DNA of 32,000 bases from Candidatus Nanoarchaeia archaeon (GCA_028279745.1 JANQNC010000001.1:1140001-1172000); one strand, 5' to 3'; counted from the first letter of the stretch, positions 3,074 to 30,649 are shown. A program made the numbers and translations. The notes: generated from the sequence alone by a model not told the origin.

Positions 3074-4309
3074 ATGCTAAACGAACTAATAACTCTTATC
3101 GTACTGATATGTCTTTCAGCATTCTTTTCAGGAGTAGAGACAGCATTTGTAGGCTTAACCCATATAAAACTACATCATATGCTGGCAAAAAGGAAAAAAA
3201 ATGCAGATGTTGTGGCAAGGCTAAAAGAAAAACCACAAAGACTGATAACAACAATCCTCATAGGAAATAACATAGTAAACATAGCTTTATCTGCAATATC
3301 AACAAAGATAGCGCTAGATCTATTTGGGAGCACAGGAGTTGCAATAGCAGTGGGGATCGTCACATTAACAATCCTAATATTTGGAGAGATCACGCCAAAA
3401 TCATTAGCGATAGCGCATGCAGAAAAAATAACACTGATGACTGCAAGACCTTTAGAGCTAGTATCATTTGTTTTATTCCCCCTAGTAATAATATTTGAAG
3501 GATTGTCTATTTTAGCAACAAAAATTACAGGCGGAGAAAATAAGAACCCGACAGTAACAGAAGAAGAACTAAAAACAATGATCGAGATAGGGGAAAAAGA
3601 AAACATAATAGAACAAAAAGAAAAAGAGTTCATAGAGGGCGTGTTGGAGTTTAACGACATAACAGCAAGAGAGGTGATGACTCCAAGAGTGAGAATGTTT
3701 GCACTAAGCGCAGACATAAAAATCAAAGATGCATTGCCAAGAATAAACAAGAAAGGATTCTCAAGAATACCGATCTACAAAGGAACAAGAGACAAAATAG
3801 TGGGGGTAGTACACATAAAAGACATACTAAACGCCGTAGCAAAAAAGAAAACAAACAGAAAACTATCTTCAATAGCTGCAGACCCAGTATTCGTAACAGA
3901 AAATAGGATAGTCAGCGAGATATTCAAAGAGATGCAGGAAAAAAGAACACACTTAGTAATAATAGTGGATGAATATGGTGGAACAGAAGGGATAATCGCA
4001 TTAGAAGACTTACTTGAAGAGATTGTGGGAGAGATAATGGACGAATCAGACTTATCTCCAGAAATGATCTTAAGAGTGACTAAGAACGTGGTAGTTGTTC
4101 ATGGAGATACAGAGGTAGATGACGTAAACGACTTTTTCCATGTAAACCTGCCAGTAAGCGAAAGATACAATACAGTAAACGGGTTATTTCACCACAAATT
4201 GAGAAGGATACCAAGAAAGAATGCAACCTTGGAGTTTGATGGTGTAACAATAAAAGCACAAGAAGTATCAAAAAGGAAGATACTGAAAGCGAAGATAACA
4301 AAAACGTGA
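3074..4309 (+). CDS. CNNM / HlyC-CorC family transporter (DUF21 TM domain + CBS pair + CorC_HlyC C-terminal domain)
   Basis: The N-terminal region has 4 TM segments. It contains GEITPKSLA, the hinge motif FNDITAREVMTPR, CBS-pair sequences (FSRIPIY...VGVVHIKD) and a C-terminal ...HLVIIVDEYGGTEGIIALEDLLEEIVGEI... segment. Confidence 0.9.
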   Translation: MLNELITLIVLICLSAFFSGVETAFVGLTHIKLHHMLAKRKKNADVVARLKEKPQRLITTILIGNNIVNIALSAISTKIALDLFGSTGVAIAVGIVTLTILIFGEITPKSLAIAHAEKITLMTARPLELVSFVLFPLVIIFEGLSILATKITGGENKNPTVTEEELKTMIEIGEKENIIEQKEKEFIEGVLEFNDITAREVMTPRVRMFALSADIKIKDALPRINKKGFSRIPIYKGTRDKIVGVVHIKDILNAVAKKKTNRKLSSIAADPVFVTENRIVSEIFKEMQEKRTHLVIIVDEYGGTEGIIALEDLLEEIVGEIMDESDLSPEMILRVTKNVVVVHGDTEVDDVNDFFHVNLPVSERYNTVNGLFHHKLRRIPRKNATLEFDGVTIKAQEVSKRKILKAKITKT

Positions 4310-28289: not shown

Positions 28290-28352
28290 CCTGAGGATTT
28301 TCTAAACCCTGTGACTGGGACTTGAAGTGAAGAAAATACGCCACCGCCCGGA

Positions 28353-28384
28353 CACCCATGATAAAAGATTTCTCTTAATATCAA
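28353..28384 (-). other. Predicted BHB (bulge-helix-bulge) intron in the T-loop, position 59/60
   Basis: Geometry: T stem (5 bp), 4-bp central helix (U.G, U.G, C-G, A-U), 3-nt bulge AAU, then inner helix UGAU/AUCA and a further 5-bp stem. The opposite 3-nt bulge UGU lies between the central helix and the T stem. Removing the intron restores the 7-nt loop UUCAAAU. Confidence 0.55.
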
Positions 28385-28416
28385 TTTGAACCGGGATATC
28401 CCGAAGGAAACCGGCT

Positions 28417-28475
28417 AACCTGGTCCTTTGTACAAAAGGATGCACTCAAGGCTTACGCTCCCAGATCTGTTTAGA
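28417..28475 (-). other. Predicted intron at or near canonical position 37/38 (3' junction uncertain)
   Basis: Something must be removed to join the anticodon loop CUUAGG to A-GCCGG (the 39-43 strand) plus the UUCG variable arm. The BHB is only relaxed (3 of 4 central pairs) and leaves one A.C mismatch in the anticodon stem. An alternative junction is at 28406. Confidence 0.3.
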
Positions 28476-28476
28476 C

Positions 28477-29106
28477 CTAAGATCGGCGCAATACCGGGTT
28501 ATGCGACGGTGGCATTTCTGATAACACTTGAGAACTTTCGCTCCTTTTTAAAGTTAACTGATACGACTTAAACTTGCTGTTCTGTAGATATGTCTTGACT
28601 TTCTTATCAAATGCCCAAACGTCTTTGATTAATTTTTTAAGATCATGAATCAAGTCTTTACTTGCAGAGTGGAATATTAAGTCCCCGTCTTTTTTTATTC
28701 CTCCGTCAGTTATTAGGAGTCCTAAAAAGAAATGTTTTTTTAATGAATTATTCCCATTTAAGATAAACGAAGGGATCTTAACATTTAACGCTTTTTTACC
28801 ACAGCATATCTCAAATTCATCTGTTATTGTTTTAAATGTCTTCACAGAGTATTTTTCGAATTCCCAGAGGGGTTGCTTATTTGGTCTTTTTCTGACCCTG
28901 ATTGTTCCTTTAATGTCGAATAACTTAGAAAATAATTCATAAAATAGTTTTACATATTCTTTATTGGTATTGTAAAAACAGATCGGATATATTCTATGTC
29001 CTCCTCCATTGTGTTTCACAGGGAGACAACCGTCACCTGCCAACATACCTAAAAACATAGCGAGATCATTAGATTTTTTTAATTTGTAAATTTTATTCTT
29101 TTCCAA
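28477..29106 (-). CDS. Free-standing double-motif LAGLIDADG homing endonuclease
   Basis: Two LAGLIDADG motifs, FLGMLAGDGCL and FFLGLLITDGGI, are about 100 aa apart, with typical K/N-rich beta-sheet segments. The start is TTG at 29106; the first ATG is codon 17. The last 12 codons overlap the tRNA gene. Confidence 0.85.
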   Translation of the reverse strand: MEKNKIYKLKKSNDLAMFLGMLAGDGCLPVKHNGGGHRIYPICFYNTNKEYVKLFYELFSKLFDIKGTIRVRKRPNKQPLWEFEKYSVKTFKTITDEFEICCGKKALNVKIPSFILNGNNSLKKHFFLGLLITDGGIKKDGDLIFHSASKDLIHDLKKLIKDVWAFDKKVKTYLQNSKFKSYQLTLKRSESSQVLSEMPPSHNPVLRRS

Positions 29107-29140
29107 CCTAATAAATAACGTGGTTGAATCTACTAATTAA

Positions 29141-29157
29141 GTTTTCTATTAGAAAAC
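29141..29157 (-). terminator. Hairpin (7 bp, 3-nt loop) downstream of the acidic-protein gene
   Basis: gttttct-att-agaaaac lies 27 nt after the stop at 29184, and AT-rich sequence follows. Confidence 0.4.
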
Positions 29158-29183
29158 GGAATTATTTCTGGGGGTGTTGAAAA

Positions 29184-30581
29184 CTATCCGAATATGTCGT
29201 CGTATTCGACTTTAGTTGTGTCAACTTGGTCTTCATTGACTTCTTGCTCTTTTGATTCTAAAACTTCTTCATACGGTTGTTTTTCTTGTTCTAATTCTTC
29301 TTCAGTTGTTTCCTCTTGAACTGTTTCTTCAACTTCAGATTCTTCAGTTGTTTCTGGTTCTGAAACTGGTTCTTCTAAGGTTGGAGTTTCTTCTTCATTA
29401 ATTTTTTCAATACTCTCTTCTGGAGCTTCTTCAATAGTCTCTTTAACTTCTGTAACTGGTTTATCTTCTACTTCTTCAACTGTTTCTTGTACTGGTTCGT
29501 CAACAGTTAATTCTTCAGTTTCTTCCTCTTCAGGCTCGTCTGAGTTTTCCATGGGGATGTTAGAAATGTCATCATCGTCAAAGTCCTCACGTTCTTGCAC
29601 TGGTTCGTCAACAGTTAATTCTTCTTCGGTTGTTTCTTCCTGGACTGTTTCTTGAGATAGTTCTTCTTCGGGTTCGTCTGTTGTTTCTGGTTCTGTTAGT
29701 TCCTCTGCTATTGGTTCTTCTGCTTCTTCTTTAGGCTCCTCTGGAGTTTCTTCACGTTCTTCTTCAATTGTATCTTCAACTTCGGTAACGGGTTCTTCTT
29801 CTACTTCTTGGATTGGCTCTTCAACAGTTTCTTCTACTTCAGTTGTTTCTTCACTAGGTTCATCTATAGAAATCTCTTCTGGTTCATCTTCAACTTTAGG
29901 TTCTTCTTCAGTTGTCTCTTCAACTTCGGGTTCTGAAACATCCTCGAATGTTTCTTCAATAGGGCCCAAGTCCTCGGGTTCTTCTTCTGGTTTTTCTATC
30001 TCTTCGATAACCTCATCTGCCACCTCTTTTTCCACCTCGCTCCCAGCTTCGTCATCAACATCTTCAATATCTAAATCTTCAACTGTTTCTTCTATCTCAG
30101 GTTCTGATTCTTCTACCTCTTCAACAGGTTCTTCTATAGAAATCTCTTCAGGTTCAGCAGAGATATCTTCAAAAGTCTCTTCTTCAGTTATAGAATCAGT
30201 TTCGGTTTGTTCTTCATTATCATAATCATATTCTCCTTTTTCAACATCAGTTTCTTCTTTAGGAGTCACTTCCTCAAGAGGTTCTTCAACTGTTTCTAAA
30301 TGGTCTGCAATAGGAACTGTTTCAACCTCTTCTTCCACTAGTTTCTCAACTTCAGGAAGGTTATCTTGAGGATCTTCAGGAATAGTTACTTCTTCATTAG
30401 AAGGTTCAATAATATTTTCAGTGTTTTCTTCTTTTTGGATCTCTGGATACTTCTGATCGCCTTTATTAGACATAATGTTTTCAGCCATACGCATTGCGTC
30501 TGTCTTAGAAGAAGCTAAACCATGTTCTTTAAGCTGTTTAGCTAGATTGTTAATCTTTTGAATATCACTTAAGCTTGTCAT
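29184..30581 (-). CDS. Extremely acidic E/T/P/V-rich repeat protein with a short structured N-terminal domain
   Basis: AGGTG lies 10 nt before ATG 30581; the track starts at TTG 30599. The N-terminus is MTSLSDIQKINNLAKQLKEHGLASSKTDAMRMAENIMSNKGDQ. About 400 aa of EE.E/TEE/VEE repeats follow, including the duplicated EELTVDEPVQE. The matching DNA repeats are 29483-29516 and 29591-29624. Confidence 0.6.
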   Translation of the reverse strand: MTSLSDIQKINNLAKQLKEHGLASSKTDAMRMAENIMSNKGDQKYPEIQKEENTENIIEPSNEEVTIPEDPQDNLPEVEKLVEEEVETVPIADHLETVEEPLEEVTPKEETDVEKGEYDYDNEEQTETDSITEEETFEDISAEPEEISIEEPVEEVEESEPEIEETVEDLDIEDVDDEAGSEVEKEVADEVIEEIEKPEEEPEDLGPIEETFEDVSEPEVEETTEEEPKVEDEPEEISIDEPSEETTEVEETVEEPIQEVEEEPVTEVEDTIEEEREETPEEPKEEAEEPIAEELTEPETTDEPEEELSQETVQEETTEEELTVDEPVQEREDFDDDDISNIPMENSDEPEEEETEELTVDEPVQETVEEVEDKPVTEVKETIEEAPEESIEKINEEETPTLEEPVSEPETTEESEVEETVQEETTEEELEQEKQPYEEVLESKEQEVNEDQVDTTKVEYDDIFG

Positions 30582-30649
30582 GTGACCCTTACACCTCAAT
30601 AAGAAATTTCTTTTACTCCTTTATAATACTTACTTTTTGCTTTTTAAAC

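Follow-up and report, generated by a model that had tools for sequence, protein, structure and literature searches.

To our knowledge, homing endonucleases are thought to persist in essential genes only inside self-splicing introns or inteins. Free-standing homing endonucleases of the GIY-YIG or HNH family are familiar from T-even phages, as in the case of SegB in the tRNA gene cluster of T4, and may engage there in collaborative homing with a neighbouring intron. Fungal mitochondria harbour mobile endonuclease ORFs (mORFs), which bring a foreign copy of a gene's C-terminus and leave the native C-terminus behind as a relic (PMC3630166). Cases have been described in atp6 of Allomyces macrogynus and in atp6, atp9, cox2 and nad3 of Glomus sp. 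(PMC3630166, citing Paquin et al. 1994). For Woesearchaeota and Pacearchaeota, LAGLIDADG genes have been reported only in group I introns of rRNA genes (Nawrocki et al., PMC6125680), and a full-text literature search yielded no description of LAGLIDADG-tRNA gene cassettes in archaea.

Here, we describe a LAGLIDADG open reading frame (ORF) within a 32,000-nucleotide stretch of the genome of a Candidatus Nanoarchaeia archaeon (hereafter the window). We posit that it is probably the cargo of a free-standing mobile cassette of about 0.7 kb that is physically fused to a tRNA-Ser(UGA) gene. The likeness to mORFs is manifold: a free-standing LAGLIDADG ORF (mORFs can also be GIY-YIG) inserts in a gene and brings with it a copy of that gene's end, by which the gene stays functional, the native end lies beside the insert as an unexpressed relic, close relatives hold the empty site, and the ORF can be stopless and in phase with the host gene. 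The layout is mirrored, however, as the 5' end and promoter are replaced here, whereas in mORFs it is the 3' end. Instead of a protein gene, an archaeal tRNA gene serves as host, its putative replacement promoter is contained in the endonuclease ORF, and the duplicated piece is only 16-23 nt long and nearly identical to the relic, so that target disruption is not obvious.

With the T-even phage enzymes the locus shares a gene outside any intron or intein beside its presumed target, possible co-conversion of flanking DNA, and an adjacent intron that may protect the host allele. It differs from them in the LAGLIDADG family, the cellular archaeal genome and the physical overlap with the tRNA gene. 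The intron-encoded enzymes I-DmoI and I-Tsp061I and the intein endonucleases PI-PfuI, PI-PkoII and TliVMA have the same fold, the same catalytic motifs and an archaeal host, but the ORF described here lies outside a bulge-helix-bulge (BHB) intron and is not accompanied by Hint or intein domains.

The endonuclease gene and the tRNA gene that it enters

The features of the locus, in coordinates of the window, are as follows:

29107..29190, minus strand: left arm of the cassette, non-coding, homologous to the left arms of L001, L003, L006, L011 and L015
29141..29157, minus strand: T-rich hairpin of the left arm, GTTTTC-TAATA-GAAAAC, conserved
28477..29106, minus strand: LAGLIDADG endonuclease ORF, 209 codons from TTG (Pfam, AF2 model, Foldseek)
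29029..29061, minus strand: LAGLIDADG motif 1, AMFLGMLAGDG, with catalytic Asp25 invariant in 26 homologues
28702..28734, minus strand: LAGLIDADG motif 2, HFFLGLLITDG, with catalytic Asp134 invariant in 26 homologues
28545..28560, minus strand: CAGTTAACTTTAAAAA, BRE/TATA-like box of the tRNA gene, also encoding Q-L-T-L-K of the endonuclease's last beta-strand
28339..28513, minus strand: tRNA-Ser(UGA) gene, 175 nt, 84 nt when spliced, discriminator G
28484..28513, minus strand: tRNA exon 1, nt 1-29, also the last 10 codons of the ORF (199-208)
28453..28483, minus strand: tRNA intron 1, 31 nt, position 29/30, containing codon 209 and the ORF stop TAG
28445..28452, minus strand: tRNA exon 2 (GCCUUGAG, anticodon UGA; ARAGORN on the spliced sequence)
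28417..28444, minus strand: tRNA intron 2, 28 nt, canonical position 37/38 (ARAGORN with introns 1 and 3 removed)
28384..28416, minus strand: tRNA exon 3, with the anticodon stem 3' strand, long variable arm, T stem and loop
28352..28383, minus strand: tRNA intron 3, 32 nt, T-loop position 59/60 or 60/61 (locus comparison, ARAGORN)
28339..28351, minus strand: tRNA exon 4, with the T stem 3' strand, acceptor 3' strand and G73 (ARAGORN)

A preliminary description of this DNA had reported a double-motif LAGLIDADG ORF of 209 codons starting at TTG (29106-29104), with its first ATG at codon 17 and located within neither an intein nor a recognisable intron. Our analysis agrees on all of these points: the frame is open, both start and Met17 were recovered by its translation, and motifs, Pfam and fold are consistent with each other. 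The public gene call begins at the ATG of codon 17 and yields 193 aa (P0001), and homologues are 190-235 aa long. The profile searches that the description had proposed placed the protein with LAGLIDADG_3 (PF14528, 8e-12) and LAGLIDADG_2 (PF03161, 8e-7), both above cut-offs, and its nearest solved relatives by sequence are intein endonucleases (PI-PkoII, 5e-8). Pfam detected LAGLIDADG domains alone in the 209-aa ORF, with no HTH and with no Hint or intein domains in or around it. As there is likewise no upstream exon in the window, the ORF is inside neither an intron nor an intein.

Both LAGLIDADG motifs are present, and their core residues G24-D25 (GDG) and D134-G135 (TDG) are unchanged in 26 of 26 aligned homologues. 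An AF2 model built on this alignment (pLDDT 92, pTM 0.89) displays the pseudo-dimeric alpha-beta-beta-alpha-beta-beta-alpha fold with a beta-sheet DNA saddle. Foldseek matched it (prob 1.0, TM 0.69-0.80) to I-DmoI over the whole length and, for the inteins TliVMA and PI-PfuI, to their endonuclease domains, while WhiA and bI3 maturase were among the weaker fold matches. Judged from sequence and model, the ORF is likely to encode a monomeric LAGLIDADG homing endonuclease with two motifs and predicted cleavage activity.

The tRNA gene was hidden by its introns. Neither ARAGORN nor Rfam (gathering threshold and E<=10) found a tRNA in the unspliced DNA of the window, and the region folds much better than shuffled sequence (z = -4.5). 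Three introns were delimited by comparison with the DNA downstream of homologous ORFs at 35 other loci. After their removal ARAGORN returned an 84-nt tRNA-Ser(tga), and with introns 1 and 3 alone removed it found intron 2 unaided. The form spliced in silico has the UGA anticodon, long variable arm and G73 of a class II archaeal tRNA-Ser(UGA). Homologous loci encode the same class II tRNA, with the anticodon loop CUUGAG or CUUGAA and discriminator G, and its orthologues at L012, L018, L026 and L036 are free of introns. Intron 1 forms a hairpin with a 3-nt bulge in the minimum free energy (MFE) fold, that is, a relaxed BHB, and its hairpin varies in sequence and length among homologues.

The preliminary description had assigned a UAG anticodon to the tRNA and had placed the stop codon of the ORF on it. 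Both claims have to be abandoned, since the spliced tRNA is tRNA-Ser(tga) according to ARAGORN and the homologous loci, and the TAG (28479-28477) sits in the variable hairpin of intron 1. The corresponding anticodon arm CCGAU-CUUAGGU is this hairpin, which has another sequence in L001 and L003 and is missing in L012, L018 and L026. A helix of leader and trailer prolonging the acceptor stem in the MFE fold of the window was also rejected, as it is not kept at other loci. The genome consists of one 1.30-Mb contig with 35.6% GC, and its tRNA genes appear mostly interrupted because ARAGORN detects 15 tRNAs only. By the two search patterns used, the gene described here is the only tRNA-Ser(UGA) candidate in this genome.

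With the first base of the tRNA at 28513, the last 12 codons of the ORF overlap its 5' part, just as had been proposed. The ORF enters, or ends about 70 nt upstream of, tRNA-Ser(UGA) in all of the roughly 35 readable loci of Woesearchaeota- and Pacearchaeota-type genomes, and this recurrent linkage argues against a chance overlap. It reads into the tRNA at most loci. In the distant L027, L031 and L032 it ends about 70 nt before the tRNA, and the intervening DNA has a TATA box to itself. No stop codon belongs to the ORF proper: its frame stays open up to whichever stop comes first within the tRNA or intron 1. In the window this is the TAG of intron 1, and in homologues with tails ending in ...KRKP (P0005, P0007, P0013, P0025, P0048 and the broken copy of G105) the frame crosses intron 1 and has precisely the anticodon TGA as its stop codon. 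The reading frame of the tail varies among homologues (MPPWHNLVLR, AEVAQSGTAQ, ECRRGTTWY), so that its conservation is that of a tRNA and not that of a protein. It also appears dispensable, because the structured protein finishes before the tRNA: the QLTLK/SYQLTLNK codons form the last beta-strand of the AF2 model, and the final helix then ends 1-3 codons before the tRNA. If both genes share one transcript, processing of the tRNA 5' end would turn the endonuclease message into a non-stop mRNA, as the preliminary description had pointed out, since its stop and last 12 codons come after 28514. With regard to annotation, standard finders miss these tRNA genes, and the ends of the ORFs are artefacts of tRNA sequence.

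The TATA box that had been noticed within the coding sequence, TTTAAAAA at 28552-28545, is located there indeed, and its spacing to the tRNA is conserved. It coincides with SYQLTLNK, the most conserved C-terminal block of the protein, whose codons read TATCAGTTAAnTTTAAATAA. In 18 of 26 loci the TTTAAA of this box precedes the first tRNA nucleotide by 38-39 nt (range 31-48). Cassette-free tRNA-Ser genes of relatives have TTTATAAA-type boxes at about -32, and GTTAAnTTTAAAWAA boxes precede some cassette-free tRNA-Ser genes (L057, L066, L099). These sequence comparisons support the view of the ORF-borne box as a conserved dual-use element, which presumably acts as the promoter of the tRNA. The suggestion of an unusual overlapping transcription unit thereby holds as anatomy, the spacing between the apparent ORF-borne TATA box and the tRNA being conserved.

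Occupied and empty sites

According to our comparison of loci, the cassette comprises in 5' to 3' order the left arm (T-rich hairpin, TATA box and GGTGA), the ORF, the BRE/TATA box and leader of the tRNA within the last ~20 codons, and the tRNA itself. In relatives, it sits in the D-loop region of the resident tRNA-Ser(UGA) gene. The preliminary description had recommended comparing the synteny of loci with and without the ORF, and two occupied/empty pairs show an insertion of about 0.7 kb. In the first pair, the occupied locus L003 and the empty locus L087 (G097), which has no orthologue of the ORF, are 69% identical in their upstream flanks over 1.5 kb. Similarity spans L003:1411-2875, up to tRNA nt 21, and resumes at the complete tRNA (L003:3589-3754). 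The insert consists of 713 nt (left arm and ORF) between 23-nt direct repeats ATGCCACCGTGGCACAATCTGGT, and the tRNA 5' fragment ending at nt 21 is preceded by its own TATA box. In the second pair, L015 carries the cassette between tfb and tRNA-Ser, and the same two flanks are found without a cassette in G009 (L070, 73-81% identity to L015) and G001 (L067, 70-78%).

Upstream of the cassette, the native promoter and tRNA nt 1-16/21 are left as a relic in L003, L008 and L015. These relics have their own TATA box at about -32, and in L008 and L015 the retained part of the tRNA ends at nt 16 or 17. A fourth relic may be present at the beginning of L009 (GCATAACC), which is truncated by the end of its contig. 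ORF, inserted terminus and native relic, the three components of the mORF type, are thus found together in L003, L008 and L015, while the window is without an upstream relic of the tRNA 5' end.

A foreign origin of the inserted terminus, as in mORFs, may be hinted at in L015, where the acceptor strand of the relic (GCCGACG) differs from the working strand and is the same as in the cassette-free L069 and L103. The working tRNA of L015 reads GCCACCG/CGGTGGC, as do those of L003 and the window. This thinly suggests, by sequence resemblance, that the tRNA body of L015 was co-converted with the cassette, a reading that is weakened by the likeness of its T arm to that of L070. In L003, relic and working copy are identical over 23 nt. 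Duplication of the tRNA 5' end is not unique to the cassette, because short duplications of this kind with inserts of 40-70 nt also occur upstream of the cassette-free tRNA-Ser genes at L065, L079, L083, L084 and L099.

The left arm is homologous among L001, L003, L006, L008, L009, L011, L015 and the window, irrespective of the upstream gene. In the family it contains a hairpin, the box TTAAATAATATGG and the ribosome-binding box GGTGA. The hairpin at 29141-29157, which had been taken for the terminator of the upstream acidic-protein gene, does exist but is not specific to that gene: it belongs to the conserved left arm, where homologues have a hairpin of other sequence in the same place, and it occurs with unrelated upstream genes. 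It may serve as a transcription terminator or insulator. The first bases of the left arm provide the stop codon of the acidic-protein gene (29186-29184), which lies within TCGGATAGTTT, a sequence common to the left end of L001.

Distribution, selection and alternative readings

Public databases hold 64 proteins with 53-71% identity to the endonuclease. An alignment-based scan of a genome collection, in which a scan with the single protein gave no matches, identified relatives of 37-68% identity in 33 species-level genomes labelled as Woesearchaeota, Pacearchaeota or Nanoarchaeota, a few of them evidently mislabelled. The distribution is patchy. Only 6 of 301 sampled genomes of the same order (136 families; E <= 1e-25), or about 2%, contain an orthologue, as does 1 of 60 genomes drawn one per other family, and the tRNA-Ser(UGA) 5' half is uninterrupted in 52 of 61 genomes. 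Within lineages much of the spread of the cassette is vertical, because some related genomes have both the cassette and its syntenic flanks in common (L012/L013/L037 and L020/L024). On viral contigs only relatives of 25-26% identity were found, and these offer no evidence for a viral vehicle.

Selection was assessed by dN/dS across homologues, as the preliminary description had advised, and proved to be purifying. The three pairs with unsaturated dS gave values of 0.17 (L013/L037), 0.17 (L020/L024) and 0.31 (L029/L036), and the overall range was 0.08-0.31, with the lower values in pairs other than these three. Decayed copies exist as well. The copy of G105 has a frameshift, a TAA stop and changes from GDG to GDD and from TDGG to TDSS, and that of L033 lacks the N-terminal half and keeps the part from motif 2 to the tRNA. 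Presence and absence at a homologous site, patchiness and decay, as expected of a mobile element, were therefore all observed. The earlier suggestion of a decaying remnant of a mobile intron or insertion stands as regards an insertion at the tRNA locus, given the occupied/empty pairs and the patchy distribution, but not as regards an intron remnant, nor as regards general decay in view of the purifying selection.

The same purifying selection would also be expected of a host factor, and the preliminary description had considered an endonuclease domesticated beside the tRNA. The ORF would then encode a DNA-binding regulator or a maturase-like helper of the intron-rich tRNA-Ser, inherited vertically and often lost, and its overlap with the tRNA would reflect compaction. 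The recurrence of the same tRNA neighbour across Woesearchaeota- and Pacearchaeota-type genomes, with synteny in some pairs, is in line with this, and so are the weaker fold matches to bI3 maturase and to WhiA, a domesticated LAGLIDADG regulator. WhiA-like regulators, however, have lost the catalytic acids, possess an HTH and are universal and vertically inherited, whereas here both catalytic Asp are invariant, there is no HTH, and tRNA-Ser(UGA) is universal while the orthologue was found in no more than 6 of the 301 genomes from this order. Decayed copies and the insertion polymorphism with displaced native promoter relics likewise speak against domestication, which we regard as distinctly improbable. 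Taken together, patchiness, purifying selection, insertion polymorphism and decayed copies are the prediction of a homing life cycle and not that of a host factor.

The relics themselves could be viewed differently, if the upstream tRNA 5' copy were the real first exon and the ORF belonged to a very large intron in the D-loop, or to a processed leader, removed by the archaeal splicing endonuclease, as is the case for I-DmoI in rRNA introns. The copies of nt 1-16/21 in L003, L008 and L015 have a proper TATA box and are nearly identical to the working copy, and the genome, with its 15 tRNAs detected by ARAGORN, is rich in non-canonical tRNA introns. Yet the window and most loci are without an upstream copy, and the ORF-proximal tRNA 5' half must therefore be functional there. 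Moreover, the same sequence stands before both would-be splice sites, so that the central 4-bp helix of a BHB would need a palindrome, of which there is none in L003 and L008, and the ORF-borne TATA box keeps its conserved spacing. Since the ORF precedes the first tRNA nucleotide, the window has no exon before it and the repeat geometry excludes a BHB at the relics, we rejected the type encoded by a BHB intron and consider this explanation as a whole to be very improbable.

A further question concerns the state of the window's own copy, which might be a fixed fossil that has lost expression, its frame being still open owing to recent decay and to the retention of the 3' end as tRNA promoter. 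The family ATG is missing (GGTGATTTTCAATGAATTTC to GGTTGGAAAAGAATAAAATTT), the GGTGA box is lost, and the TATA-like box TTAATTAG (29140-29133) is eroded with respect to the family sequence TTAAATAATA and only partly recognizable. Translation would have to start at TTG or at Met17, seven residues before GDG. The genome shows neither a relic nor a second tRNA-Ser(UGA) by the two search patterns, and decayed copies elsewhere retain the 3' end. On the other hand, 209 of 209 codons are open, the catalytic residues are intact, residues 1-16 still align to the family, and pN values of the window against its relatives lie in the family range. Leaderless or TTG starts are possible in archaea. On balance a fossil seems unlikely to us, and we favour a mobile cassette fused to the tRNA gene, of which the window's copy retains frame and catalytic residues but has eroded expression signals.

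A putative homing cycle and its possible meaning for DPANN tRNA genes

For a mobile cassette of this kind we propose the following cycle. The enzyme would cleave tRNA-Ser(UGA) genes that are free of the cassette at about nt 16-25, where the left junctions are found. This is the putative target because insertion junctions fall at tRNA nt 16-21. The right end of the break would then invade the donor's tRNA, and copying would proceed leftwards via leader, promoter, ORF and left arm. Since there is no homology farther upstream, the copied tract would be joined to the left end of the recipient. The promoter and nt 1-16/21 would thereby become a silent relic, and a working tRNA would be regenerated under the promoter of the cassette and stay functional without any splicing. 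The adjoining tRNA allele, including its introns, may be co-converted. Once a relic is present there would be homology on both sides, and the cassette could be excised precisely if the two tRNA 5' copies recombined. After fixation, the cassette would persist under purifying selection in some lineages and would decay or be lost in others.

Self-immunity is the weakest point of this cycle. In occupied alleles both presumed-target junctions survive, with the relic promoter and nt 1-21 on one side and the complete working tRNA on the other, so that the usual self-immunity, in which the insert disrupts the target, is not apparent. Cassette-linked and cassette-free tRNA 5' halves were compared, and no consistent difference in sequence was found. 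An interruption of the target by intron 1 would be an appealing source of immunity, as this intron is present in 4 of 4 cassette-bearing genomes of the order with a readable tRNA versus 22 of 295 cassette-free ones, counts in which L010/L052 were read by eye and related genomes are not independent observations. Among the 301 sampled genomes of the order it occurs in 25, compared with 6 for the cassette. Immunity via intron 1 in the manner of collaborative homing was rejected as a general explanation: many carriers of the intron are cassette-free, and L008, L009, L012 and L033 have the cassette without it, so that intron 1 is frequent but not obligatory here.

The association with tRNA genes extends beyond this family. 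All three LAGLIDADG ORFs of the window's genome adjoin tRNA genes. The second ends 15-20 nt before an interrupted tRNA-Leu(UAG) and has a TATA box in its last codons, and the third, which contains an HTH domain, converges on tRNA-Gly(UCC). In relatives the association holds for 8 of 10 free-standing LAGLIDADG ORFs of distant similarity and for 4-5 of another 7, each of which enters a tRNA gene, converges on it or touches it (including Val, Cys-like, Gly, Thr, Leu, Trp, Tyr and Ser(GGA)). About 15 of 20 other free-standing LAGLIDADG genes in the order adjoin tRNA genes, while we estimate chance adjacency at roughly 1% per ORF from about 46 tRNA genes in 1.3 Mb. We tentatively raise the possibility, although we consider it doubtful at present, that the free-standing LAGLIDADG genes of DPANN archaea form a class homing into tRNA genes, whose co-conversion spreads non-canonical tRNA introns (29/30 family, ...AGCGUAA|GCC) between lineages. 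Such a class would need no splicing because the replacement promoter and tRNA 5' end are brought along. If it exists, the intron load and fragmentation of DPANN tRNA genes would be tied to an arms race with endonucleases that target them.

The locus would represent an archaeal case in which a homing endonuclease persists at an essential tRNA gene by replacing its promoter and 5' end, with the new promoter contained in its own ORF. Should tRNA genes be the targets of the enzyme, this would provide a testable cause for the intron-rich and hard-to-detect tRNA genes of DPANN archaea, as well as a vehicle for the horizontal spread of tRNA alleles and introns. The family would further offer new compact LAGLIDADG enzymes with highly conserved tRNA gene sequences as their natural targets.

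Other LAGLIDADG ORFs and the tRNA genes of the genome

The architecture of the window's endonuclease ORF fused to tRNA-Ser(UGA) recurs 4.5 kb ahead of the window start, where a second LAGLIDADG ORF contains a TTTAAAAT box within its last codons and is followed by an interrupted tRNA-Leu(UAG) that begins approximately 18 nt past the end of the ORF. A third LAGLIDADG ORF is convergent at its 3' end with a tRNA-Gly(UCC) gene of the opposite strand, which is interrupted several times. The features are as follows (genome-wide coordinates, G000:C1):

1134818-1135411, + strand: second LAGLIDADG ORF (E 3e-18 against the family profile)
1135471-1135587: tRNA-Leu(UAG), interrupted, downstream of the second ORF
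1041919-1042455, + strand: third LAGLIDADG ORF, with an HTH at its N-terminus

Only 15 tRNA genes were detected in this complete 1.30-Mb genome (ARAGORN, intron option), and the majority of its tRNA genes must therefore carry non-canonical or multiple introns.

Cassette edges and duplicated tRNA ends

The cassette (left arm, endonuclease ORF and tRNA-Ser(UGA)) adjoins the following gene in the window:

29184-30599: acidic-protein gene (471 aa, Glu-rich)

The 3' end of this gene (29184-29190) reads TCGGATAG(TTT), and the cassette left arm of the homologous locus L001 (L001:2835-2845) opens with the same 11 nt that end it. The cassette insertion may have supplied the stop codon of the acidic-protein gene.

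Repeats of the tRNA end were observed at three homologous loci. In L001 (2826-2840, 3720-3733, 3773-3786), the tRNA 3' end CCGAGCTGTGGCG is found twice downstream in direct order and once inverted at the cassette left edge; L021 (~3128-3226) has another copy of GGGTGGTGGCG 86 nt downstream, and L006 (~2345) displays CGCCACC in inverted orientation at the left edge. These repeats may represent recombination scars or T-stem introns.

At five cassette-free loci of relatives (L065, L079, L083, L084 and L099), tRNA nucleotides 1-12/20 are exactly duplicated 40-90 nt upstream of the working tRNA-Ser(UGA), in L079 as three tandem units. The insert between the copies often contains a hairpin followed by GGTCGCGAT, and in L065 and L083 a TATA box is present at the distal copy only. 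These duplications may be what is left of cassettes since lost, or may form a small mobile module of their own; they may also be long leaders.

Intron 1 and the tRNA-Ser(UGA) neighbourhood across the order

Intron 1 of tRNA-Ser(UGA) (5'-AUU...hairpin...AGCGUAA|GCC, position 29/30) forms a single homologous family (L087, L090, L092, L097, L099, L100, L102, L103, L126) and is carried, mostly without the endonuclease, by 25 of the 301 genomes sampled from the order. In L126 the family also occurs in tRNA-Ser(GGA), downstream of a different LAGLIDADG ORF.

The DPANN-type cassette with its tRNA was also found in MAGs titled 'uncultured Methanosarcinales', 'Paceibacterota' or 'Dojkabacteria' (L005, L006, L008, L015, L024, L032-L035), whose taxonomic labels or binning are probably wrong.

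In many genomes of the order, a transcription factor B (TFB) gene divergently adjoins tRNA-Ser(UGA), with 74-81% nucleotide identity. Loci with this pair are:

L015, L061, L064, L065, L067, L069, L070, L076, L082, L091, L103

The TFB/tRNA-Ser(UGA) neighbourhood is a useful synteny anchor for the comparison of empty sites.
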